64,000 nucleotides of DNA from Candidatus Enterousia sp. (GCA_045613345.1 JAZLAT010000005.1:203263-267262); one strand, 5' to 3'. Shown: positions 3,040-24,791, counted from the stretch's first letter. Numbers and translations: made by a program. The notes: generated by a model not told the origin, from the letters alone.

Positions 3040-3990
3040 ATGACAAAGGAAAAAATAAAAGAAATAAATTCATTGGCGGAACTGCAAGAATTGTATACCG
3101 CAACCTTTGGTAAAAACGGTACTATGACCGCGCGCTTGCGTGAAATGAAGAATTTGGATAATGACGCGCGTGCAGAATTAAATCGTGAAAATGCCGAACT
3201 TCGTGAATTGTTTAAAAATCGCCAGTCCGAATTGGAAACTGCGGAATTAAACGCGGCATTGGCAAAGCAAAAATTGGATGTGACATTAGATGCCGAACCA
3301 CAAAATTGTGGAACGATTCATCCACTGACCCGTGCATTGAATGAAATTTCAGAAATTTTAGAATCCTTTGGTTATACACATTATACGGGACCCGAAATCG
3401 AAGACGATTGGCATAACTTTACTGCGCTGAATACGCCGTCTTATCATCCGGCGCGCGATATGCAAGATACTTTCTTTTTGCCGAATGGTAATGTTATGCG
3501 AACACAAACTTCGGCGATTCAAATTCGCACAATGGAAACAAATGGTGTACCTATCAAAATGTTCGGCACCGGGGCAACATACCGTAAAGAAATGGATGCA
3601 ACACATGGACCTATGTTTGGTCAAATTGAAGGCTTGTACATCGACAAGAATGTAACATTATCTGATTTGATTGGTGATATTCGCGCATTTTTCAAACGTT
3701 TCTTTAATTTAGATAATGTTGAATTGCGCATTCGTCCGTCTTACTTTCCTTTTACCGACCCCAGTATCGAGGTTGATATGAAATGGAACGGGGACAAATG
3801 GCTTGAAATGATGGGGGCCGGTATGGTTCATCCAAATGTTCTGCGTAATTGTGGGGTTGATCCGAATGAATATGGTGGTTTTGCATTTGGATTTGGTTTG
3901 GACCGGTTGGCAATGTTAAAGTATAACATACCAGATTTGCGCGACATATACGGAAATGATGTCCGTTGGTTAAAGTCTTGTGGTTTTTAA
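3040..3990 (+). CDS. pheS: Phenylalanine--tRNA ligase alpha subunit
   Basis: The class II core reads FTALNTPSYHPARDMQDTFFL...FGQIEGLYIDKNVTLSDL...FPFTDPSIEVD...GFAFGFGLDRLAML. The tracked ORF at 2848 overlaps rplT. An internal ATG at 3040 (MTKEKIKE...) is the more plausible start. Confidence 0.9.
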   Translation: MTKEKIKEINSLAELQELYTATFGKNGTMTARLREMKNLDNDARAELNRENAELRELFKNRQSELETAELNAALAKQKLDVTLDAEPQNCGTIHPLTRALNEISEILESFGYTHYTGPEIEDDWHNFTALNTPSYHPARDMQDTFFLPNGNVMRTQTSAIQIRTMETNGVPIKMFGTGATYRKEMDATHGPMFGQIEGLYIDKNVTLSDLIGDIRAFFKRFFNLDNVELRIRPSYFPFTDPSIEVDMKWNGDKWLEMMGAGMVHPNVLRNCGVDPNEYGGFAFGFGLDRLAMLKYNIPDLRDIYGNDVRWLKSCGF

Positions 3991-4005: not shown

Positions 4006-6312
4006 ATGAAATGGACTTTTGATTGGTTATGTGATTATTTGAATACAGATTTGTCGGCAAAGCAAATCGCCGATACATTGACGCGCACGGGACTGGAAGT
4101 GGAAGATTTAATCGCCCCCCTGCCCCCGATTGCGGCAAAGATAGTTGAATGCAAACCCCATGAAAACAGTGACCACCTGCATGTTCTGCGTGTCGATGAC
4201 GGTTCGGGCGAATTGCGGACGGTTGTATGTGGTGCACCAAATGTGCGCGTTGGTATGATTTCTGCGCTGGCACGACCAGGCTGTGTTATCGAAGGACACG
4301 AAATTCAAAGTGGCAAATTGCGTGGTGTCGTATCCGATGGTATGATGTGCAGTGGCCGCGAACTGGGGATAAATGACGACCACAGTGGCATTATCGAATT
4401 GCCCGAAGATACAGAAATCGGCAGCACGATTGTCGATTGCCCAATCGTGTTCGACGCGGGTATTACGCCGAATCGTCCCGATTATTTGGCGGTGCGTGGT
4501 GTTGCGCGCGATTTGTCTGCGGCTGGTGCGGGTGAATTTATTGTACCAAATGACGCGGAATTCATGGTTTCCGGTAATGCACGCGATGTCCAGATTAAAA
4601 CAGACAAATGTCGTGCATATAAACTTGCAGAAATTCATGGAATCACAATGGCGCAAAGCAATGACAAGATTGCATCACGCCTGCGTGCGATTGGTATAAA
4701 CCCAAAGAATGCACCGGTGGACGCAACAAACTATATCTGTTATGACATGGCGCAACCAATGCATTGCTTTGATGCAGACGGTGTGCATGGCGACATTATC
4801 GTGCGCATGGCAAAATCGGGCGAAGAATTTACCGACCTTTTTGGTAATAAACATGAATTGGTTGATACCGATATGGTTATTGCGGATGCGGATGGAATAT
4901 TGGCTTTGGCGGGTGTGATTGGTGGTGCGCGCGGTTGCACAACCGATGATACGAAAAACATTATTCTTGAAAGCGCTTATTTTGACCCTGTGTCTGTGCG
5001 TAAAACCGCAAAGCGCCTTGGAATATCAACCGATGCGTCATATCGTTATGAACGCGGGCTTGACCCGACAATCACTGGTCCGGCTTTGATGAATGCGGTT
5101 AAAATTATAACCGACGCGTGTGGTGGCAATGTTGTTGGATTTAATGCGGCGGGAACCGATACACCATTGAACCCCGAAATAGAATTTGCACCCAAAATGT
5201 TTGCGCGTCGTACGGGTATAGAAATGCCGACTGACGAAATGCGCGATATATTGCAACGCCTTGGGTACAGTGGCAACTTTGACGGTGATTTGTGGCACAT
5301 TGTTGCGCCGAATTCACGTGTTGATGTCCAAATTCCGGAAACCGTTGTTGCCGATTTGATTCGTATATATGGTTATGATCGTATCGCCCAAAATGAAAAG
5401 CATACAACAGGTGACGCGCATCATGCGGATGATTTTGATATGGTTGTTCGTGAAACTTTGGTTGCGCGCGGATTGAACGAGTGCCGTTCTTATGGTTTTG
5501 GTAATTCGCGTATCGAAGAATTGTTAAGCGACAAACCCATTATTCGTGTTGCAAATCCGATTGTTGCAGACTTTGACACGGCGCGAAATTCTTTGTTGGG
5601 TATATTGCTGAACGCGGTTTCTGAAAACGAAAAACGTGGATATTCTGATTTGAATCTGTTCGAAGTTGGCACGGTGTTTGATGGCGACACACCGGGCGCG
5701 CAACATACATCGGTCTGTATAGTCCGCACGGGTGCGACATCGCCGCGGCATTGGCAGAAACGTAATCGCGATGTTGATATATACGATGTAAAATCTGATA
5801 TTGTTGCGTTGATGCGGGGTCAAAACTTTACGATTGATACCGAAAACCCACCGCGTTGGGCGCATCCGTACAGATATGGTCGCATTAAACAGGGCAATAA
5901 AACAATCGGTGAATTCGGCGAATTGCATCCATCGGTTGCGCGGGCTTTAAAGATAAAAACAAATGTCGTAATTGCGATGGTTGACGATATTGAAAACCTG
6001 CCACGGCCGGCGGTGAAGCGCAAGATTGTTGAAAAAGGTGAATTCCAACCGATAACACGCGACTTTGCGTTTGTTGTTGCAAATGATTTTCCGGCATCAA
6101 AATTGACGGCGGCGGCGCGCGGCGCATCGCCATTGATAACCGATATAGTCGTTTTTGATTCGTTTGAAATGGCGGACGGGAATAAATCTGTGGCTTTTAC
6201 GGTGACAATAGTCCCACGTGATAAAATGACCGAAGACGATTTGGCGAAACTGCACGGTGATATTATCGCGAACGTTGAAAAGAAATGCCCCGCCAAAGTG
6301 CGTGATAAATAG
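4006..6312 (+). CDS. pheT: Phenylalanine--tRNA ligase beta subunit
   Basis: 768 aa. N-terminus MKWTFDWLCDYLNTDLSAKQIADTLTRTGLEVE, followed by tRNA-binding, B3/B4 and B5 regions. Confidence 0.9.
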   Translation: MKWTFDWLCDYLNTDLSAKQIADTLTRTGLEVEDLIAPLPPIAAKIVECKPHENSDHLHVLRVDDGSGELRTVVCGAPNVRVGMISALARPGCVIEGHEIQSGKLRGVVSDGMMCSGRELGINDDHSGIIELPEDTEIGSTIVDCPIVFDAGITPNRPDYLAVRGVARDLSAAGAGEFIVPNDAEFMVSGNARDVQIKTDKCRAYKLAEIHGITMAQSNDKIASRLRAIGINPKNAPVDATNYICYDMAQPMHCFDADGVHGDIIVRMAKSGEEFTDLFGNKHELVDTDMVIADADGILALAGVIGGARGCTTDDTKNIILESAYFDPVSVRKTAKRLGISTDASYRYERGLDPTITGPALMNAVKIITDACGGNVVGFNAAGTDTPLNPEIEFAPKMFARRTGIEMPTDEMRDILQRLGYSGNFDGDLWHIVAPNSRVDVQIPETVVADLIRIYGYDRIAQNEKHTTGDAHHADDFDMVVRETLVARGLNECRSYGFGNSRIEELLSDKPIIRVANPIVADFDTARNSLLGILLNAVSENEKRGYSDLNLFEVGTVFDGDTPGAQHTSVCIVRTGATSPRHWQKRNRDVDIYDVKSDIVALMRGQNFTIDTENPPRWAHPYRYGRIKQGNKTIGEFGELHPSVARALKIKTNVVIAMVDDIENLPRPAVKRKIVEKGEFQPITRDFAFVVANDFPASKLTAAARGASPLITDIVVFDSFEMADGNKSVAFTVTIVPRDKMTEDDLAKLHGDIIANVEKKCPAKVRDK

Positions 6313-8419: not shown

Positions 8420-8728
8420 ATGGCATCAAGTCGTGATTTTTTAGAATTTGTATTGGAACAATTATCAGAATTGCCCGATATAACATATCGCGCGATGATG
8501 GGCGAATTTATAATTTACTATCATAATACCGTGGTCGGTGGCATTTACGACAACAGGTTTTTGGTAAAGCCCACCGAATCTGTACGCAAGATTTTACCAA
8601 ACGCAAGCATGGAAATACCGTATAATGGCGGAAAACCGATGATGATGTTGGATGATATTGAAAACCCAGAATTATTAAAATGTGCGTTGAACGCGGTATA
8701 TGACGATTTATCAAAATCAAAAAAATAA
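8420..8728 (+). CDS. TfoX/Sxy N-terminal domain protein
   Basis: 102 aa: FLEFVLEQLSELPDITYRAMMGEFIIYYHNTVVGGIYDNRFLVKP resembles the TfoX_N fold, which has a conserved MFG/MMG..Y....F motif. Confidence 0.5.
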   Translation: MASSRDFLEFVLEQLSELPDITYRAMMGEFIIYYHNTVVGGIYDNRFLVKPTESVRKILPNASMEIPYNGGKPMMMLDDIENPELLKCALNAVYDDLSKSKK

Positions 8729-8739
8729 TGTAAAGTTTT

Positions 8740-9462
8740 TTATTCTATTATGAAACTTCGCGGATAAAAATCGCTGTAAAACCGGCCGTCGGTTGCGGTG
8801 AATCTAAGGACGCAATAGTTCGGGTCGGTAACACCACCAGGATAGTATTCGGTATCACCGTCGCGCCAAATCATTTCTTTGGTTGCGGTATCGGTCAAAA
8901 CTTCCATAGTTCCACGCAACATCATGCCTTGGAAATTTTTATCATCACAGAAGTAAATGCTGGCCTTGGGGTTTGCTTTATATTGTGCAACGCGTAAAGA
9001 AAAGGTGTTTGTGGTGAAATAAAATACTTTGATACCTTCACGAACGCGGGGCGACAACATTGCCTTGGTCCACGGGAAACCGTTTTCATCAACCGATGAT
9101 ATAAAGGTTATTGGTAATGTGTCTGCCATTTTGGCAATAAGTTCTTTGATGCCACGCAACGCGGGGTTTTCTGGGGTTTTATCTGTGATGGTCAATTCTG
9201 TGTGCCAACGTTTTAATTTTGGAAAATACATTTTCATTTGCCCAATGTATTCTTCGCGTGTGATAGGATTTGGTAAATTCTTGTTAAAATTATCAATAAA
9301 TTGCGCACAATGTTCAATCATTTCATCCATTGTAAAATTCTGTAAAAATTCGCCGTTTTTATAGCAATATATACAATAGTCAGAATTTTTTGCGCCACCC
9401 GAATCCGTGCCAAATAAGTTTTCATCGTTTATTGGCATTCCGCAACTTTGACAGATTTTCAT
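8740..9462 (-). CDS. Fusion protein: N-terminal zinc ribbon joined to a pyridoxamine-5'-phosphate-oxidase-like (split-barrel FMN-binding) domain
   Basis: The N-terminus has CQSCGMPI...DYCIYCY (a four-Cys ribbon). The C-terminal half (ITFISSVDENGFPWTKAML...KASIYFCDDKNFQGMMLRGTMEVLTD) is PNPOx-like. Confidence 0.55.
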   Translation of the reverse strand: MKICQSCGMPINDENLFGTDSGGAKNSDYCIYCYKNGEFLQNFTMDEMIEHCAQFIDNFNKNLPNPITREEYIGQMKMYFPKLKRWHTELTITDKTPENPALRGIKELIAKMADTLPITFISSVDENGFPWTKAMLSPRVREGIKVFYFTTNTFSLRVAQYKANPKASIYFCDDKNFQGMMLRGTMEVLTDTATKEMIWRDGDTEYYPGGVTDPNYCVLRFTATDGRFYSDFYPRSFIIE

Positions 9463-9653
9463 GATGATTCCTTTTGGTTATTGTTATGATGTTAACAGTT
9501 CCTATATAAAAAGCAAAGACTGTTTTTTGTTAAGAACCGCTTGCACTATCTCGGCAGAAAATAAACAAGAGTTTCCAGATTTAATGAAACAAGTGAAAGT
9601 GTTTAACGAAAAATGGTTATAATAACACTACATGCATATAATTTTGTGTCGTA

Positions 9654-10034
9654 TTATTTTTGTTTATAACCACACTTTATAAAACTTAGTACTTTTTGCA
9701 TTATTGGTTGCGATTGTTTATAAAATTTTGAAATACACAGCATATTTAATTCGTGCAAGGCTTTGAACACTTCTGTATTTTTTTGGTTGTCTAAATAAAA
9801 TGTAAAAACAGGTTTATTTCCTAATTGCATTTTATATTCATATGCGTTCAATAAATCATCATAATGTTCATAAATTGAAAATATATGCACCCCTGAACTA
9901 AATACATGATACCAATTACTTTGTTCTGGAAGATTAAAGATTTTAACCTTTTTGTTTTGCATAATATCACAATATATTTGTGCAAGATTATTCAAAGATT
10001 CTAAAAATATATTTTTATCCATTTTATGTGTCAA
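9654..10034 (-). CDS. Hypothetical protein, first island cargo gene
   Basis: 126-aa ORF in the AT-rich island with no recognisable motif. Its size and context fit an immunity-like protein. Confidence 0.4.
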   Translation of the reverse strand: MTHKMDKNIFLESLNNLAQIYCDIMQNKKVKIFNLPEQSNWYHVFSSGVHIFSIYEHYDDLLNAYEYKMQLGNKPVFTFYLDNQKNTEVFKALHELNMLCISKFYKQSQPIMQKVLSFIKCGYKQK

Positions 10035-10088
10035 GCCTCAGATAATAAGCATTATAAAATAATTATACAAATAATCAATATATTCGAA

Positions 10089-10123
10089 AAATGGTTAATT
10101 TCACCCGATGGTGAATTTTGATT
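10089..10123 (+). promoter_or_regulatory. Conserved hairpin module AATGGTTAATTTCACC-N6-GGTGAATTTTGAT just upstream of a TATAAT box; copy 1
   Basis: Near-identical to the module at 11200-11233. Both copies precede plus-strand island genes. Confidence 0.45.
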
Positions 10124-10173
10124 AAACATCAAAGATATGATATAATAATACCTGTTATTATAGAGGTATATAA

Positions 10174-10950
10174 ATGCGTTTGAATTGGGAACAAAAAGAT
10201 TTTGATAAAGATATAGATTTTATATTATTTCATCAAAAAGATAAAACACCTGTTTGGTGGCACAAACAGTTATTCAATACATATCCTGATTTAGATTACG
10301 ATTATTGTTGGAATTCTGGTATCAGCGAAGAGCAACGATTTGAATATATAATCAAGCAAATGAAAATTCAGGCACAAAAACGACAGCCTGTTATAGAAAA
10401 ATCAATAAATATATTCCAAAAAGCATGGACAGATATTGCTGATAATCTAAATGATGCATACAGTTCCGCTTTTGATAACGATTGTTTAAATATATTAAAC
10501 TCAATGACAGCAGAAGTTGGTTTAAATCCAATATGCCCGCGCGATAACGAAAATCATAAATTTGATATATATCATTATTTTGATGTTCAATATGCGATAT
10601 TAACAGCATTACATGAAATTACACATTTTGTATGGTTTTATTTTTGGCAGCAACACTTCAAAGACAACATAAATGAATATGATTATCCAAACTTAAAATG
10701 GTTGTTATCAGAAATAGTTGTTGAAACAATTATTCGTAATTCAAAGATAAACGATTTGATTGAACAACCCAAATATATCGCTTATTCGTATTTCTATGAT
10801 ATGAAAATTGGTGATGAACTGATTTTTGAAACTATGCGAAAAATGTATCTAAATCGGAAAGACATTTTTGATTTTATGAAAAAATCTTTTGATTGGATAA
10901 AAAATAATGAAACTGAATTAAGAAACAAGATAGCAGAAGCTGAAAAATAA
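10174..10950 (+). CDS. Hypothetical protein with an HExxH motif (LHEITHFVWF); possible zinc metallopeptidase-like protein
   Basis: 258 aa on the AT-rich island. Only the HEITH motif was recognised. Confidence 0.4.
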   Translation: MRLNWEQKDFDKDIDFILFHQKDKTPVWWHKQLFNTYPDLDYDYCWNSGISEEQRFEYIIKQMKIQAQKRQPVIEKSINIFQKAWTDIADNLNDAYSSAFDNDCLNILNSMTAEVGLNPICPRDNENHKFDIYHYFDVQYAILTALHEITHFVWFYFWQQHFKDNINEYDYPNLKWLLSEIVVETIIRNSKINDLIEQPKYIAYSYFYDMKIGDELIFETMRKMYLNRKDIFDFMKKSFDWIKNNETELRNKIAEAEK

Positions 10951-10952
10951 TA

Positions 10953-11227
10953 GTAAAAACTGCCTCGGTGGATTAGAACGGAGCAACCCCTTGGAAATCT
11001 TGGTTGTTCGAAGATTGGTAAAATTTAGTGTTTTTTATATATGCTTTCTTCGAACCGCCCGAACAATATAAAATACAAAGAAAACCGCACTTTAAAGGTG
11101 CGGTGTATCTTTTGGTGGGAGTATGCTTGCACTAATCGAGCAGAAAATAAACAACGGTTTGATGATTTAATGCAACAGGTAAAAGAGTTTAAAGAAAAAA
11201 ATGGCTAATTTCACCAATAGGTGAAAA
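10953..11227. repeat. Island inter-cassette repeat module, copy 1
   Basis: It contains CTTGGAAATCTTGGTTGTTCGAAGATTGGTAAAATTTAGTGTTTT. It also has a hairpin ACCGCAC-N-GTGCGGT followed by GTATCTTTTGGTGGGAGT, which matches the tRNA-Tyr 3' end. It ends with GCTTGCACTAATCGAGCAGAAAA...TTTAATGCAAC and a TTTCACC...GGTGAAA hairpin. Homologous copies lie at 12476-12780 and 13200-13595, and partial copies at 9535-9650 and 10085-10140. Confidence 0.6.
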
Positions 11228-11233
11228 TTGATA
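11200..11233 (+). promoter_or_regulatory. Conserved hairpin module AATGGCTAATTTCACC-N5-GGTGAAAATTGAT upstream of a TATAAT box; copy 2
   Basis: See 10089-10123. It sits immediately upstream of the S41 peptidase gene. Confidence 0.45.
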
Positions 11234-11278
11234 AAATCTTGTATATGTGATATAATCACAAGGAATAAGAGAAATATA

Positions 11279-12472
11279 ATGAAAAGCATCACTTTTAATC
11301 AGATTGTTTCTGCTGTTGGTTTTTCAGATTTAACAACAATAAGAACCGATGATGTAAAAACAAATATATCTGCTTTTGCAAGATGGGTTTTTAAGGGGCA
11401 CCCTGCATGGCCTTTTTGGGATAAACAAATTAAGGATTCTTTTAAAAAACATATAGTTGAATTGTATAAATATGCAAATAATATTTCTTCTTCAACACAA
11501 CTACTTGAAAGGTTGTATGAAATATCTTTAAAAACTATACCGGATCGGCATTTTTCTGTTTCTTTTAGCAATCATAAACGGGCTCTTGATAAGGAACAAA
11601 GAAAATCTATTAAGCATAAAATATTATCAGATTTAGAGGCTAATGAATCTGTTGGACACAACCTTGCTAAATTGAATTTATCAGAATTAAAAAAACTGGG
11701 GATAAATATTTATATGCGTGAGGATTTATCAAATGTCGGCAAAGCTTGGTTGTTTGTTGGTGAAATTAACCAAAAAATAGGTGTCATAGCTTGCACTAAT
11801 TTGACGACTATAAATCCCACAACAAAATTATTTTCTAAAGATCAGTTTAACAAAATATCAAAAATGGTAAAAACTGTAAAAAAATACAGTAAAAATTGGC
11901 TTGGTGTTATTATTGATTTGCGTGATAATACGGGTGGCGATTCCCAATTTTTTGAACAAATTGCTGGTATTATAAATGGGGGGGCTGCAGCGCCAATCAG
12001 TAAAAGATTGTGGGTAAGAAATACATCAGAAAATATTTGGTTATTAGAAGAGTTGCAGAAACGTTATAATGTACTTGATATAAAAAAACTTGAAAAATTG
12101 CGGGCACAAAAAAAATTAAAAATTTTATGGTATGAAGGCAAGAAAATAACAATAAAAAAACCATATAAACAGATAAGAATACTAACAAATAGGTTAGTCC
12201 AATCTTCTAGCGAAGCTGTAATTTTTCAACTTGGAAAATGTCCGGCATATAAAACTGTTGGTGAAAATACTGGTGGTTGCACAATAGGCTTTTGTCCGAT
12301 TGGGGTTATGTTGCCAAATGGCGGAATTATAAATATGGCAACCAGTTATTCTGTTAGTCCTATGATCTGTAAAGAAGGTATTGGAATTTCGCCAGATATC
12401 CCTATTACAAAAAAAGATACTTTTACTGTTGCGTTGAATGATATTGAACAAAAATTAAAAAAAGCATATTAG
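11279..12472 (+). CDS. S41-family (C-terminal processing / tail-specific protease-like) serine peptidase
   Basis: Motifs VIIDLRDNTGGDSQFFEQIAG (S41 IIDLRxNxGG), QSSSEAVIF (catalytic Ser region) and TVGENTGGC...GISPDIPI. The tracked start at 11228 is a TTG inside the promoter. ATG 11279 (MKSITF...) is preferred. Confidence 0.6.
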   Translation: MKSITFNQIVSAVGFSDLTTIRTDDVKTNISAFARWVFKGHPAWPFWDKQIKDSFKKHIVELYKYANNISSSTQLLERLYEISLKTIPDRHFSVSFSNHKRALDKEQRKSIKHKILSDLEANESVGHNLAKLNLSELKKLGINIYMREDLSNVGKAWLFVGEINQKIGVIACTNLTTINPTTKLFSKDQFNKISKMVKTVKKYSKNWLGVIIDLRDNTGGDSQFFEQIAGIINGGAAAPISKRLWVRNTSENIWLLEELQKRYNVLDIKKLEKLRAQKKLKILWYEGKKITIKKPYKQIRILTNRLVQSSSEAVIFQLGKCPAYKTVGENTGGCTIGFCPIGVMLPNGGIINMATSYSVSPMICKEGIGISPDIPITKKDTFTVALNDIEQKLKKAY

Positions 12473-12475
12473 TAT

Positions 12476-12780
12476 ATTCGATTAAAGCAAAATGTTGAAA
12501 ATCTCGGCTGTTCGAAGATTGGTAATTTTTAGTGTTTTTTATATATACTTTCTTCGAACCTGTGCAGATATTAAAAATCCAAAGACAACAAGTAGATTTT
12601 GCAAGCGAAGCGTGGCGAAATCGTTACGGTTGGCCCGCAGGGCTTTGCCCAAGGGAAACCCGCACTTTGATGGTGCGGTGTATCTTTTGGTGGGAATCAG
12701 TTTGCACTAATCGAGCAGAAAAAGAATTTTCTGATTTAATGCAACTAGTCTCCATATTTAAAAATAAATGGTTGGTTTAA
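12476..12780. repeat. Island inter-cassette repeat module, copy 2
   Basis: It shares the blocks TGTTCGAAGATTGGTAA, AAATCCAAAGACAACAAGTAGATTTTGCAAGCGAAGCGTGGCGAAATCGTTACGGTTGGCCCGCAGGGCTTTGCCC, the hairpin plus GTATCTTTTGGTGGGA, and GTTTGCACTAATCGAGCAG. Confidence 0.6.
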
Positions 12781-12781
12781 T

Positions 12782-13132
12782 TTATTTCTTATAACACCCA
12801 TATGTGTGTTCATCAGAATTTATACCAAGCATGTAATCTATTTGTTTCCCTTTTTTCGAAAAAACTATCATCAATTTAATTTGTTCGCCAACAGTATTCG
12901 TTCCATAGTAAGATATAGAATTGCTACCACTTTCTTGTTCTTGAGATTTCAATACGATGTTTTCACCATTAACAACAACATTTGCAACATGTTTATCAGC
13001 ATTAACATCTAATGTGATTTCTGCTTGTCCAGAATTATGAGTTGCATCTTCGCATAACAAACCTGTTTCTTGATATTTATTGCTACACGCGGCTAATAAA
13101 AGTCCAAAACTTAAAAACATAATTTTTTTCAT
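12782..13132 (-). CDS. Lipoprotein, probable MliC/PliC-family c-type lysozyme inhibitor
   Basis: Lipobox LLAAC-S. Two Cys are spaced as in MliC (LLCED...YGC). SGSNSISYY and FSKKGKQ resemble the MliC SGxxY and F/WxKG motifs. Confidence 0.45.
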   Translation of the reverse strand: MKKIMFLSFGLLLAACSNKYQETGLLCEDATHNSGQAEITLDVNADKHVANVVVNGENIVLKSQEQESGSNSISYYGTNTVGEQIKLMIVFSKKGKQIDYMLGINSDEHTYGCYKK

Positions 13133-13199
13133 AAATTCTCCTTTGATTGTGTGAATAGATTATATACATGAACACGTAAAAACACAATACAAAAATGCC

Positions 13200-13595
13200 T
13201 TGATGGATTCCCTCGACACTGCGTGTCTGTGGGGAAACCGTAACGATTGTGGTGTGCTACGCTTCCACAATCTACTTGTTTTCGAACGGGGCAAACCCTT
13301 GGAAATCTTGGTTGTTCGAAGATTGGTAAAATTTAGTGTTTTGTGGGTATGCTATTTTCGCTCGCTCGGCACTATGTGCCGGCTGCGCGCAACCCGTGAC
13401 GATTGCAGTTCGTTTCACTTCCGCAATCTACTTGGTTTCGAACCTGTACAACTATTGGAAATCCAAAGACAACAAGTAGATTTTGCAAGCGAAGCGTGGC
13501 GAAATCGTTACGGTTGGCCCGCAGGGCTTTGCCCGAGGGAAACCCGCACTTTTTAGGTGCGGTGTATCTTTTGGTGGGAGTGGGTGTGCCTTGAT
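13200..13595. repeat. Island repeat module, copy 3, with internal inverted sub-repeats; ends in 18 bp identical to the tRNA-Tyr 3' end
   Basis: CGTAACGATTGTGG...CCACAATCTACTTG occurs twice in one orientation and once inverted. The module ends GGTGCGGTGTATCTTTTGGTGGGAGTGGGTG. Confidence 0.6.
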
Positions 13596-13785
13596 AAACA
13601 ATAATCAACCGTATATGCAAAAACTCTATTAATCATATCCGTTTTTGCACGGTTGCTAATTGTTCATCTGCGTATTCATCATGCGTGTCATGGTCTTCGC
13701 CCACGAAAATTTCATTTTCGTACGGCACTTGTCGTGCCGTTGCCACTCTGGCGCATCCACCCACTCTCTTTTAGCAAAATAAAAA

Positions 13786-13812
13786 ATGACCCATCCAGGT
13801 CATTTTCTATTT
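13786..13812. terminator. Bidirectional hairpin terminator (TGACCCATCCAGGTCA with flanking A/T runs) at the 3' end of the tRNA-Tyr/Gly operon
   Basis: Read directly. Confidence 0.5.
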
Positions 13813-13899
13813 TGGTGGGAGTGGGTGGATTCGAACCACCTCAGGCTTAAGCCAACAGATTTACAGTCTGCCCCGGCTCTCCAACTCCGGCGCACGCCC
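13813..13899 (-). tRNA. tRNA-Tyr (anticodon GTA), class II with a long variable arm
   Basis: The reverse complement is GGGCGTG CG CCGG AGTTGGAGAG CCGG G GCAGA CTGTAAA TCTGT TGGCTTAAGCC TGA GGTGG TTCGAAT CCACC CACTCCC A CCA. The acceptor stem has one C-U mismatch. Confidence 0.75.
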
Positions 13900-21934: not shown

Positions 21935-22176
21935 TTTTCTTTCCTTTCGTTTTTGATTAATCAAACCCACGACCCAACCACGGACCGTGTATTTTTTATT
22001 TAGCACATTATATATTTCAAATCAAGATTTTTTTGTTTACAATTTCAAACCACACGCAAAGTCACGGTTCATGCGGCTTTGCGTATCGTACAAAATTTTT
22101 ATATTTATTTATATAACAAAGATATATAACTTGGAACAATAATAAGCAAAGTTATATTTAAACAAATTATATAAAT

Positions 22177-22206
22177 AAAAAAAACCGCCAATTGGCGGTT
22201 TTTTAT
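22177..22206. terminator. Bidirectional terminator (A-run, CCGCCAATTGGCGG hairpin, T-run)
   Basis: Read directly downstream of skp. Confidence 0.6.
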
Positions 22207-22216
22207 CAAAGCCTTT

Positions 22217-22870
22217 TTAAAAACCTTTGGGTTTATCCATCTTTACATTGGATACTTTTTTATTTAACGCATTAACAACGTCATTAGTTATATCCAAATT
22301 TCCAATGTTCGCACCCGTGCGAGCAAAACGACCATCAATCACCAAAGACAAATTCTTTTTAGTGATTATTGCATCAATAATTGGATCAAGATGCTTTTCT
22401 TGAATTTCTGCAAGTGCTTTTTGGAAAGCGACTTCTACGGCTTGGGCGCGTTCGGTTAAATCGCGTTGTAATTTTGCGATTTTTCCTTGGTATTCAACAA
22501 CGCGACGTTGTAATGCTTCACGCGATAAAACATCTTGAGATTTTTCGATGTCGGCTTTTTCTTTTTCCAAATCTTTTTGTTCTTTTTCCATTTCTTTGCG
22601 CAGTTGATTTTCATATTTTTCTTTTTGGTTGCGCAAATCTTGCAATGCTTTGGATTCCGATTGGATTGCGTCCATACGAACAATCGCAAATCGCAATTCG
22701 CCACCCGTTGGTGCATCTGCAGAAACTTCGGCAATGGCTTCGTCGGCGCTTACGTTTTTGGAACCACCAACCAGTGATACCCCAATCAGCGCAATTGCGA
22801 CAACCACCGCGGCAACGATACCAAATTTAATATATTTTTTTTGTGGGTTATTATTTTTTGTGTCTTGCAT
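22217..22870 (-). CDS. skp: Periplasmic chaperone Skp (OmpH family)
   Basis: Signal/TM segment followed by a long Lys/Glu-rich coiled-coil (KALQDLRNQKEKYENQLRKEMEKEQKDLEKEK) and the tail LVIDGRF...ITNDV. Confidence 0.7.
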   Translation of the reverse strand: MQDTKNNNPQKKYIKFGIVAAVVVAIALIGVSLVGGSKNVSADEAIAEVSADAPTGGELRFAIVRMDAIQSESKALQDLRNQKEKYENQLRKEMEKEQKDLEKEKADIEKSQDVLSREALQRRVVEYQGKIAKLQRDLTERAQAVEVAFQKALAEIQEKHLDPIIDAIITKKNLSLVIDGRFARTGANIGNLDITNDVVNALNKKVSNVKMDKPKGF

Positions 22871-23050
22871 ATCTAATCCTTTTTGTTGACACGGTGACTA
22901 TAGCAATAAAAAATTACAAAACACAAGTGAAAAATTTGGAACCGTTTATATTGGGAAAAATATCATCATTTATAAACGATACAAAAACCAGACTATGTTG
23001 TCTTGAAATGCGCAAATCGAAGCATTTAAGTAAAACATTTGTGAATATTT

Positions 23051-24717: not shown

Positions 24718-24791
24718 TGGAGGCTTGGGTCGGAATCGAACCGGCATCAAAGGATTTGCAGTCCTCTGCATAACCACTCTGCCACCAAGCC
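24718..24791 (-). tRNA. tRNA-Cys (anticodon GCA)
   Basis: The reverse complement is GGCTTGG TG GCAG AGTGGTTAT GCAG A GGACT GCAAATC CTTTG ATGCC GGTTCGATT CCGAC CCAAGCC T CCA. Confidence 0.85.

Follow-up and report, generated by a model that had tools for sequence, protein, structure and literature searches.

A stretch of 64,000 nucleotides (nt) from Candidatus Enterousia sp. (GCA_045613345.1 JAZLAT010000005.1:203263-267262, one strand; hereafter the window) carries, between a zinc-ribbon/PNPOx gene and tRNA-Tyr, an array of five tandem units joined by copies of the tRNA 3' end. This array is probably a tandem series of mini-cassettes that carry no recombinase of their own, were accreted site-specifically at the 3' (CCA) end of tRNA-Tyr and are mobilised in trans. 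Its architecture is conserved at about 70 loci, cassettes are exchanged between arrays as modules whose breakpoints fall at the tRNA-derived core, and no recombinase is encoded in cis; we infer that a recombinase encoded elsewhere moves the cassettes.

Results

The units share one order of modules, namely a core, module A, an optional palindrome with a promoter, the cargo gene, module B and/or B2, a hairpin H, GTATC and the next core. The core is the 13-nt sequence TTTTGGTGGGAGT, and the order at the junction can be read directly as the hairpin ACCGCAC..GTGCGGT, GTATC, the core and GCTTGCAY. Three copies of hairpin, GTATC and core are present (11084-11122, 12659-12697 and 13543-13586), as a sequence-only reading of the window had proposed, and all three hairpins score as intrinsic-terminator-like in a terminator scan. 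The sequence TTTTGGTGGGA occurs exactly four times in the 64 kb (11110, 12685, 13569 and 13810), always on the + strand and within 2.7 kb; with one mismatch allowed it has eight matches versus 2.4 ± 1.5 in shuffled sequences, none of the 100 shuffles reaching eight. The claimed 18/18 copy of the tRNA-Tyr 3' end at the third junction proved correct with coordinates shifted by one base: 13569-13586 is identical to 13810-13827, which covers the tRNA's final 15 nt and three bases of its trailer. The 3' end of tRNA-Tyr is the repeated core of the array, and copies of 11-18 nt of it lie at every junction, here and in the ~70 loci described below.

The AT-rich character of the region was borne out by the GC content of 1-kb bins, which is 0.317, 0.278, 0.314 and 0.326 over 9001-13000 and ~0.40-0.48 in the rest of the window; 9480-13200 is at 28-33% GC, as opposed to about 43% outside it. 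Longer repeats of 150-400 bp were said to separate the genes; they exist and are found nowhere else in the window, except that the gap between the first two genes, a 126-amino-acid (aa) open reading frame (ORF) and an HExxH ORF, has just a 60-nt partial copy (10087-10146).

Several other readings of the junction were considered and rejected. The hairpin holds ACCGCACTT, the complement of the Haemophilus uptake signal sequence (USS); a reading as a DNA-uptake signal of the Pasteurellaceae (USS) or Neisseria (DNA uptake sequence, DUS) type was discarded because USS occurs just twice and DUS not at all in the 64 kb. Judged from the sequence, the spacing and orientation also misfit Xer/dif-like, IS200/IS605-like and tmRNA-like junctions.

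Syntenic loci were found by a genome scan with the PNPOx protein, whose matches were rumen metagenome-assembled genomes (MAGs); the closest relatives were uncultured Alphaproteobacteria including Candidatus Enterousia. Exact look-ups of the PNPOx and Der proteins of the window gave no match, so its own genome is absent from the collection searched. Six of these MAGs (L001, L003, L005, L008, L011 and L023) have A, B and/or H between PNPOx and tRNA-Tyr with different genes. The possibility that relatives carry the same genes free of repeats was not borne out, as they hold the same repeats around other genes. When metagenomes were scanned with a 22-mer that bridges H and the core, 53 loci matched, of which 16 contain it exactly two or three times; small ORFs that cover A led to more annotated contigs from cattle, pig and other gut samples. 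The same plan ending at tRNA-Tyr was seen in about 70 loci of rumen and gut Alphaproteobacteria (Candidatus Enterousia-like).

In every locus long enough the module order is constant, and the core with its hairpin always lies at a tRNA 3' end or in an array, which does not fit a generic dispersed repeat. The tRNA at these core-plus-hairpin loci is tRNA-Tyr everywhere but in L132, where it is tRNA-Leu. Arrays stop at tRNA-Tyr/tRNA-Gly or at a large insert, L132 again being the exception. H directly abuts an intact tRNA-Tyr in 20 loci, and about 25 have a short insert (X-like, B2-like or pseudo-tRNA-like) between the last core and the tRNA, as seen in the window with its 223-bp mini-insert X. 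The 48 complete cassettes have an A-to-H length of 509-2308 bp, and 40 of them contain just one ORF, which codes for 78-399 aa and may lie on either strand; arrays contain up to five or six core copies (L084, L090, L140). No match to the H-core or A patterns was obtained among viral contigs, nor any match to the whole junction in phage and plasmid collections.

Further inserts were seen in related loci; for those of L008, L001 and L090, coordinates refer to reverse-complemented loci in which the array reads toward tRNA-Tyr. A ~230-bp mini-insert lies between H and tRNA-Tyr in L008 (14105-14300) and L001 (12700-12880) and begins like the 3' half of another tRNA (TGGTGGGTGGATTCGATCGG...), representing a third family of small elements at this site. 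The L090 array contains a piece of an MnmE N-terminal pseudogene and a 106-aa ORF with a weak DUF6538 match (E 0.003) (2111-2437, 3645-3965). An integrase inside this array was considered and rejected, there being just this weak fragment, DUF6538-like (integrase N-terminal), and the MnmE piece; these fragments are debris of other insertions.

Cassettes reassort between arrays at 93-99% identity. In L104, a cassette of L008 (97.5% nt identity, 1.78 kb) is directly followed by a cassette of L011 (93.5%, 1.08 kb); the two blocks meet inside TTGGTGG, where the first extends to 5348 and the second begins at 5342, and the outer flanks are unrelated on both sides. In six pair comparisons, seven of the eight boundaries examined were placed in the T-run/core, and the eighth starts in A, beside the degenerate distal core of L008. 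A cassette with a 157-aa GNAT gene adjoins the tRNA in L097 and stands behind a lipoprotein cassette in L113, and the neighbour to the right of the 99-104-aa lipoprotein cassette differs between L092, L098, L113 and L001. Likewise, a cassette common to L107 and L126 (97.5% identical) is followed by the tRNA in one and by another cassette in the other. Some core-A junctions follow a terminator that is unrelated to H; in L102 this is the X terminator, and a new cassette would create just such a junction in the window today. Moreover, L132 (160-871) has a GNAT cargo and H directly at tRNA-Leu(TAG), beside rpmG; the cargo is 97.3% identical to the GNAT gene of the L084 tRNA-Tyr array, and the 3' end of tRNA-Leu(TAG) shares only ...CCCACCA with tRNA-Tyr. 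One possible interpretation, from sequence comparison, is that tRNA-Leu(TAG) serves as a secondary attachment site.

Could homologous recombination alone account for this? The array might be kept and reshuffled purely by RecA, through unequal crossing-over, Campbell-type insertion of looped-out circles or allelic replacement after DNA uptake, the tRNA core being a mere conserved part of the repeats and not an active att site. Junction repeats of 150-400 bp that are 75-93% identical, the lack of a recombinase nearby and the existence of deletion derivatives that resemble illegitimate or homologous events, such as the truncated A at 10087 in the window and an A fused to the tail of an HExxH gene in L091, are all in line with this explanation. 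It is nevertheless unlikely, in our judgement, given that seven of eight boundaries fall in a T-run/core of ~20 nt, that core-A lies behind unrelated terminators with a homology of just 10-18 nt, that the same cargo with H is found at tRNA-Leu, and that X and a serine-recombinase element (described below) enter at the same nucleotides. The boundary positions, the reassortment, the unrelated terminators and the tRNA-Leu case suggest that recombination was guided by the short core and not by long homology.

All four unrelated cargo ORFs that had been proposed in the window exist. The S41 peptidase was confirmed (PF03572, 50 bits vs a cut-off of 24, E 3.3e-13), and the HExxH motif is present, whereas the label MliC-like for the fourth ORF (12782-13132) is not supported, as no MliC match was obtained in Pfam/NCBIfam at E <= 0.01. 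This 116-aa ORF is lipoprotein-like, with the signal MKKIMFLSFGLLLAAC, and has only weak unrelated matches to PAS_6 and lipo_LytA (E 0.004). Profile searches gave no family match for the HExxH and 126-aa ORFs, and defence-system models gave none for any of the four window cargos. A counterpart of the HExxH cargo, 80% identical in aa sequence, sits in an intact cassette of L088, and distant S41 cargos occur in L102 and L130. Across the arrays, 57 cargo ORFs form 39 clusters. Pfam matches include GNAT acetyltransferases (in five), an APH-type kinase, S8, S41 and S51 peptidase families, a GT2 glycosyltransferase, PNP_UDP phosphorylase, Ser_hydrolase and a P-loop kinase; many cargos have no family match and several are lipoproteins. 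The median GC content of the cargos is 0.31 vs 0.39 for the chromosomal flanks. The arrays appear to act as a lineage-wide store of accessory genes.

This diversity bears on two further explanations. One is that the array is a single degraded genomic island, prophage or integrative and conjugative element (ICE) that once had an integrase and is now an immobile fossil. An AT-rich block beside a tRNA with att-like repeats is what such a fossil would look like, and one related array (L090) contains the DUF6538-like integrase fragment (E 0.003) together with other gene fragments. We regard this as improbable all the same, since one plan with conserved ends and 39 cargo families recurs at ~70 loci, cassettes reassort between arrays at 93-99% identity, and the window array has no phage, conjugation or integrase remnants. 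The sequence-only reading of an att footprint with tandem accretion holds for the att-type tRNA-Tyr copies, the tandem units and the absence of a recombinase, but not for a decayed island: what had been taken for an island that lost its integrase is one case of a conserved, lineage-wide array of uniform mini-cassettes. Nor is the array a satellite array, as had also been suggested, because the cassettes have no phage-like genes.

The other explanation is a chromosomal integron, degenerate or in the form of a CALIN (attC cluster lacking integrase). The cargos are mostly single, small and diverse, and their functions (GNAT, kinase, unknown) are of the kind usually seen in integron cassettes. However, no IntI-like tyrosine recombinase was detected (XerD phmmer, single-sequence query), the boundaries have no GTTRRRY/RYYYAAC pair, cargo genes are found in both orientations and some cassettes bring a promoter with them. 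The junctions consist of tRNA 3'-end copies and a terminator hairpin; because they lack attC ends, they contradict an integron, to which we give almost no credence.

No recombinase was found in the window by XerD phmmer or by tblastn with serine recombinases, in agreement with the earlier description of an island without integrase. When ORFs of at least 80 aa from the window and L001-L133 were searched with XerD phmmer, a single-sequence query of limited sensitivity, the one match was in a Bacteroidales locus and none was in the array loci. None of the 48 A-type cassettes encodes a large serine recombinase.

A larger element was seen at the same site in other loci. In L149 (85-11110), an ~11-kb element is inserted at TGGTGG of the tRNA-Tyr CCA end; only TGGTGG is repeated, and the element has its own terminator. 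It encodes ParB_N-N6_N4_Mtase, DUF5681, a large terminase, DUF2924 and a 526-aa large serine recombinase with Resolvase and Recombinase domains, together with the defence-like genes ThsB_TIR, KAP NTPase and HigB. In L104 (6424 onward) and in L144-L148 (1122 onward in L144 and L145) this element separates the array from the tRNA, and a 58%-identical variant of the recombinase lies beside tRNA-Gln in L151. Another large insert, in L140, has a 199-aa resolvase at its start, adjacent to a core copy of 20 nt. The serine-recombinase element is absent from the 64-kb window. Its recombinase is our leading candidate for the enzyme that moves the cassettes; a tyrosine integrase that escaped our searches is equally possible.

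The five units of the window are described from the distal edge toward the tRNA. Unit 1 begins with a degenerate distal core, TTTTTTGTTAAGAACC (9523-9538, + strand, read from sequence), at the distal array edge; the distal A of L008 is likewise preceded by a similar degenerate core. There follow A copy 1 (9539-9622, +; direct repeats D4/D6), which reads ...ACTISAENKQEFPDLMKQVKVFNEKWL up to a stop, is 83% identical to copy 2 and has a coding-like signature, and the 126-aa ORF (9654-10034, −). The B/H end of this unit is deleted, and the unit is fused to the next at 10087. Unit 2 starts there with the last 12 nt of a truncated A, a palindrome and a promoter (10087-10146, +; repeat D7); the palindrome is TTCACC-N4-GGTGAA (10100-10115) and the promoter is sigma-70-like (TTGATT-17-TATAAT with TG, score 10/12). 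Its cargo is the 258-aa ORF with the HExxH motif HEITH (10174-10950, +), followed by module B (10951-11079, +; repeat D1) with the inverted repeat GTTCGAAGA...TCTTCGAAC, a locus-specific module present in most related arrays. Repeat analysis and the terminator scan place junction 1 at 11084-11122 (+), with H at 11084-11104, GTATC and the 13-nt core.

Unit 3 contains A copy 2 (11125-11208), a palindrome (11210-11225) and a promoter (11228-11256), all within 11125-11256 (+). This promoter (TTGATA-17-TATAAT with TG, 11/12) is the best of the region, and the two near-consensus sigma-70 promoters with extended -10 are the best + strand promoter matches there. The 397-aa S41-family peptidase (11279-12472, +) is the cargo. 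Junction 2 (12487-12697, +) has module B, an inverted B2 (12584-12640), H (12660-12678), GTATC and the core TTTTGGTGGGA; the 116-nt repeat D1 starts at 12445, within the end of the S41 ORF. Unit 4 contains A copy 3 with an in-frame 6-nt deletion (12698-12780, +), the 116-aa lipoprotein-like ORF (12782-13132, −) and a B/B2 block (13200-13540, +; D5 and I1-I4) whose units (13227-13307, 13281-13360 and 13383-13463, and inverted at 13468-13524) include B2 in both orientations. At junction 3 (13544-13586, +), H (13544-13562) and GTATC precede the 18-nt copy of the tRNA-Tyr 3' end (D8, 18/18).

Unit 5 is the mini-insert X (13587-13809, +; I5, terminator scan), flanked by the 18-nt direct repeat. It supplies the terminator that tRNA-Tyr now uses (13783-13806) and contains an inverted imperfect copy of the tRNA 3' end (13761-13791 vs 13798-13828), which could pair with the tRNA trailer. 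L001 has X at 97.8% identity (3229-3451), even though the two PNPOx genes reach just 77% nt identity, and X-like copies occur in nine loci besides L001.

Module A, which is ~85 nt long, resembles the final 27 codons of a gene. Of 51 distinct copies, 48 have an open frame 0; the ratio of nonsynonymous to synonymous polymorphism (pN/pS) is 0.36 vs 0.92-1.06 in three control frames, and Phe/Tyr and Trp positions are conserved through different codons. The opposite strand was rejected as the coding one: its frame is open too, but has a higher pN/pS (0.47 vs 0.36) and non-conservative substitutions. A itself lacks a start codon and sits behind a terminator. A search for A as the C-terminus of a longer protein found none above 76 aa among 5.8e9 proteins, the matches being array ORFs of 37-76 aa, and tblastn of the A peptide against all collected sequences gave no match outside arrays. 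A looks protein-coding, yet seems to belong to no detectable gene.

The attachment gene, tRNA-Tyr(GTA) (13813-13899, −; ARAGORN, acceptor-stem analysis), is followed by tRNA-Gly and then tRNA-Thr (ARAGORN), and Rfam families between 9000 and 14300 are tRNAs only, other matches being far under the gathering scores. The tRNA-Tyr scores 38.5 bits in Rfam vs 66-71 for the adjoining tRNAs. A C4.U69 mismatch in the acceptor stem is seen in 45 of 46 tRNA-Tyr copies and in 13 of the 14 distinct sequences recovered, whereas pair 6:67 covaries (U-A or C-G). U69 is part of the repeated core, which incoming elements bring with them, and the clade-wide mismatch may be a cost of hosting the array.

On the other side, the array is flanked by the zinc-ribbon/PNPOx gene (8740-9462, −) and, at or near the distal array edge, by a TfoX_N-only gene of ~100 aa (8420-8728, +), likewise placed in many loci, among them L084, L088, L122, L125 and L140. 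The empty site that had been predicted, with tRNA-Tyr beside the PNPOx gene, was not found among relatives: PNPOx and TfoX_N themselves shift position, and the placement of PNPOx relative to tRNA-Tyr varies. Genes whose products are 76-84% identical in aa sequence to the window PNPOx protein occur both in Alphaproteobacteria MAGs and in over 70 rumen Bacteroidales MAGs, which points to a recent inter-phylum transfer of the gene within the rumen. Elsewhere in the window, a second GC dip (0.348) is found at 22001-23000, a few kb from tRNA-Cys (24718-24791).

Discussion

How might such an array grow? H is the terminator that each cassette supplies to tRNA-Tyr, because H of the last cassette runs straight into an intact tRNA in 20 loci, and H directly abutting the tRNA is a 'reset' attachment site. 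In the mechanism that we propose, the H-GTATC-core-A junction of a circular cassette would act as attP and the tRNA end as attB. Recombination in or beside TGGTGG would put the cassette's H behind the tRNA and rebuild an attB-like site, leaving the tRNA intact, while the former tRNA end would be left before A as an internal H-core-A junction. Repeated insertion would displace older cassettes away from the tRNA. After the first event the left arm would be common to both partner sites, so that products equal substrates, which would let arrays gain, lose and swap units. RecA-dependent deletion and reshuffling would be possible as well, through the long junction repeats.

Several observations weigh against site-specific accretion of cassettes mobilised in trans. 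Neither a circular cassette nor a true empty site within one species was seen, and no recombinase was found within ~10 kb of most arrays, including the Pfam context of four long contigs. The junction repeats, being 150-400 bp long and 75-93% identical, are enough for reshuffling by RecA without a dedicated enzyme. The att arms of the ~11-kb element and the cassette junction are alike only in TGGTGG and a broadly similar hairpin, and because the arms fail to match, a role of its serine recombinase on the cassettes is a guess. The L132 case is a single example and has no A or B modules. Finally, the six bases between TGGTGG and GCTTGCAY vary even among near-identical cassettes, and a simple conservative crossover does not explain this variation to the right of TGGTGG.

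A bolder proposal, which we put forward tentatively and with clearly less assurance than accretion itself, is that the arrays are the visible half of a still active, dedicated gene-capture system of gut and rumen Alphaproteobacteria, parallel to integrons and independently evolved. The tRNA-Tyr CCA end would then correspond to attI and the circular H-core-A junction to attC, a recombinase acting in trans, possibly the large serine recombinase specific for the tRNA end, would shuffle single-gene cassettes equipped with a promoter and terminators, and the conserved 27-codon A would be functional, as a translated peptide or a recombinase-binding arm, and not a relic. The hosts belong to a poorly known, host-associated lineage of Alphaproteobacteria with small genomes, and the array may be a main site of their accessory-gene turnover. 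Every insertion replaces the end of an essential tRNA. Which recombinase recognises the tRNA CCA end together with a terminator hairpin, and could such a site be used as a programmable landing pad?

The principle of successive integration at one tRNA or tmRNA site, with integrase-less units and partial-tRNA repeats, is known (PMC5704250; PMC3146451; bioRxiv 10.1101/2020.12.28.424599). The cis-mobilizable elements (CIMEs) of Streptococcus ICESt1/ICESt3 form tandem units with att repeats of the 3' end of the target and presumably rely on a recombinase in trans (PMC5704250). Like CIMEs, the cassettes have 3'-end direct repeats at their junctions and no integrase, excisionase or transfer genes in the units. 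CIMEs, however, are few per site, several kb long and have a recognisable parent among ICEs or integrative and mobilizable elements (IMEs) (PMC5704250), whereas an array described here can hold five or more cassettes, each 0.5-2.3 kb long and usually with one gene between uniform A/B/H ends, and has no recognisable parent.

The ssrA islands of Dehalococcoides and the composites of staphylococcal cassette chromosome (SCC) elements are likewise tandem islands downstream of a single-copy RNA or essential gene with 3'-end repeats of ~20 bp (PMC3146451). Their integrase is a CcrB-like large serine recombinase, and many units without an integration module are regarded as CIMEs (PMC3146451). Here, too, a serine-recombinase element uses the same site as the cassettes, which its enzyme may or may not move. 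In contrast, those islands are 10-30 kb long and many have a six-gene integration module (PMC3146451); here the target is a tRNA CCA end, and the recombinase is on a separate ~11-kb element and on none of the 48 cassettes.

In the tycheposon islands of Prochlorococcus, repeated integration at one tRNA displaces older elements, as it would in our arrays, and partial tRNAs are scattered through a hypervariable island of adaptive genes (bioRxiv 10.1101/2020.12.28.424599). Tycheposons are kilobases long, with a tyrosine recombinase, replication genes and irregular tRNA remnants, in contrast to the uniform, integrase-free cassettes with conserved arms described here. The XerD phmmer search of the window and the array loci detected no tyrosine recombinase; the only trace is the weak DUF6538-like fragment of L090.

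Integrons, too, hold small, mostly one-gene, diverse accessory cassettes at one fixed chromosomal site. The present arrays differ from them in having no intI, attC or attI, in their tRNA 3'-end site, in cargo on both strands and in cassettes with promoters and terminators of their own. No account of such arrays turned up in full-text literature searches. Their novelty lies in the form: lineage-wide arrays mostly of uniform, mainly one-gene mini-cassettes with conserved arms, in which each cassette brings a terminator for the tRNA and sometimes its own promoter. To our knowledge, arrays made nearly entirely of uniform 0.5-2.3 kb, mostly one-gene cassettes with conserved arms have hitherto been essentially confined to integrons; if the cassettes described here are mobile, they represent a second, tRNA-anchored route to cassette arrays.

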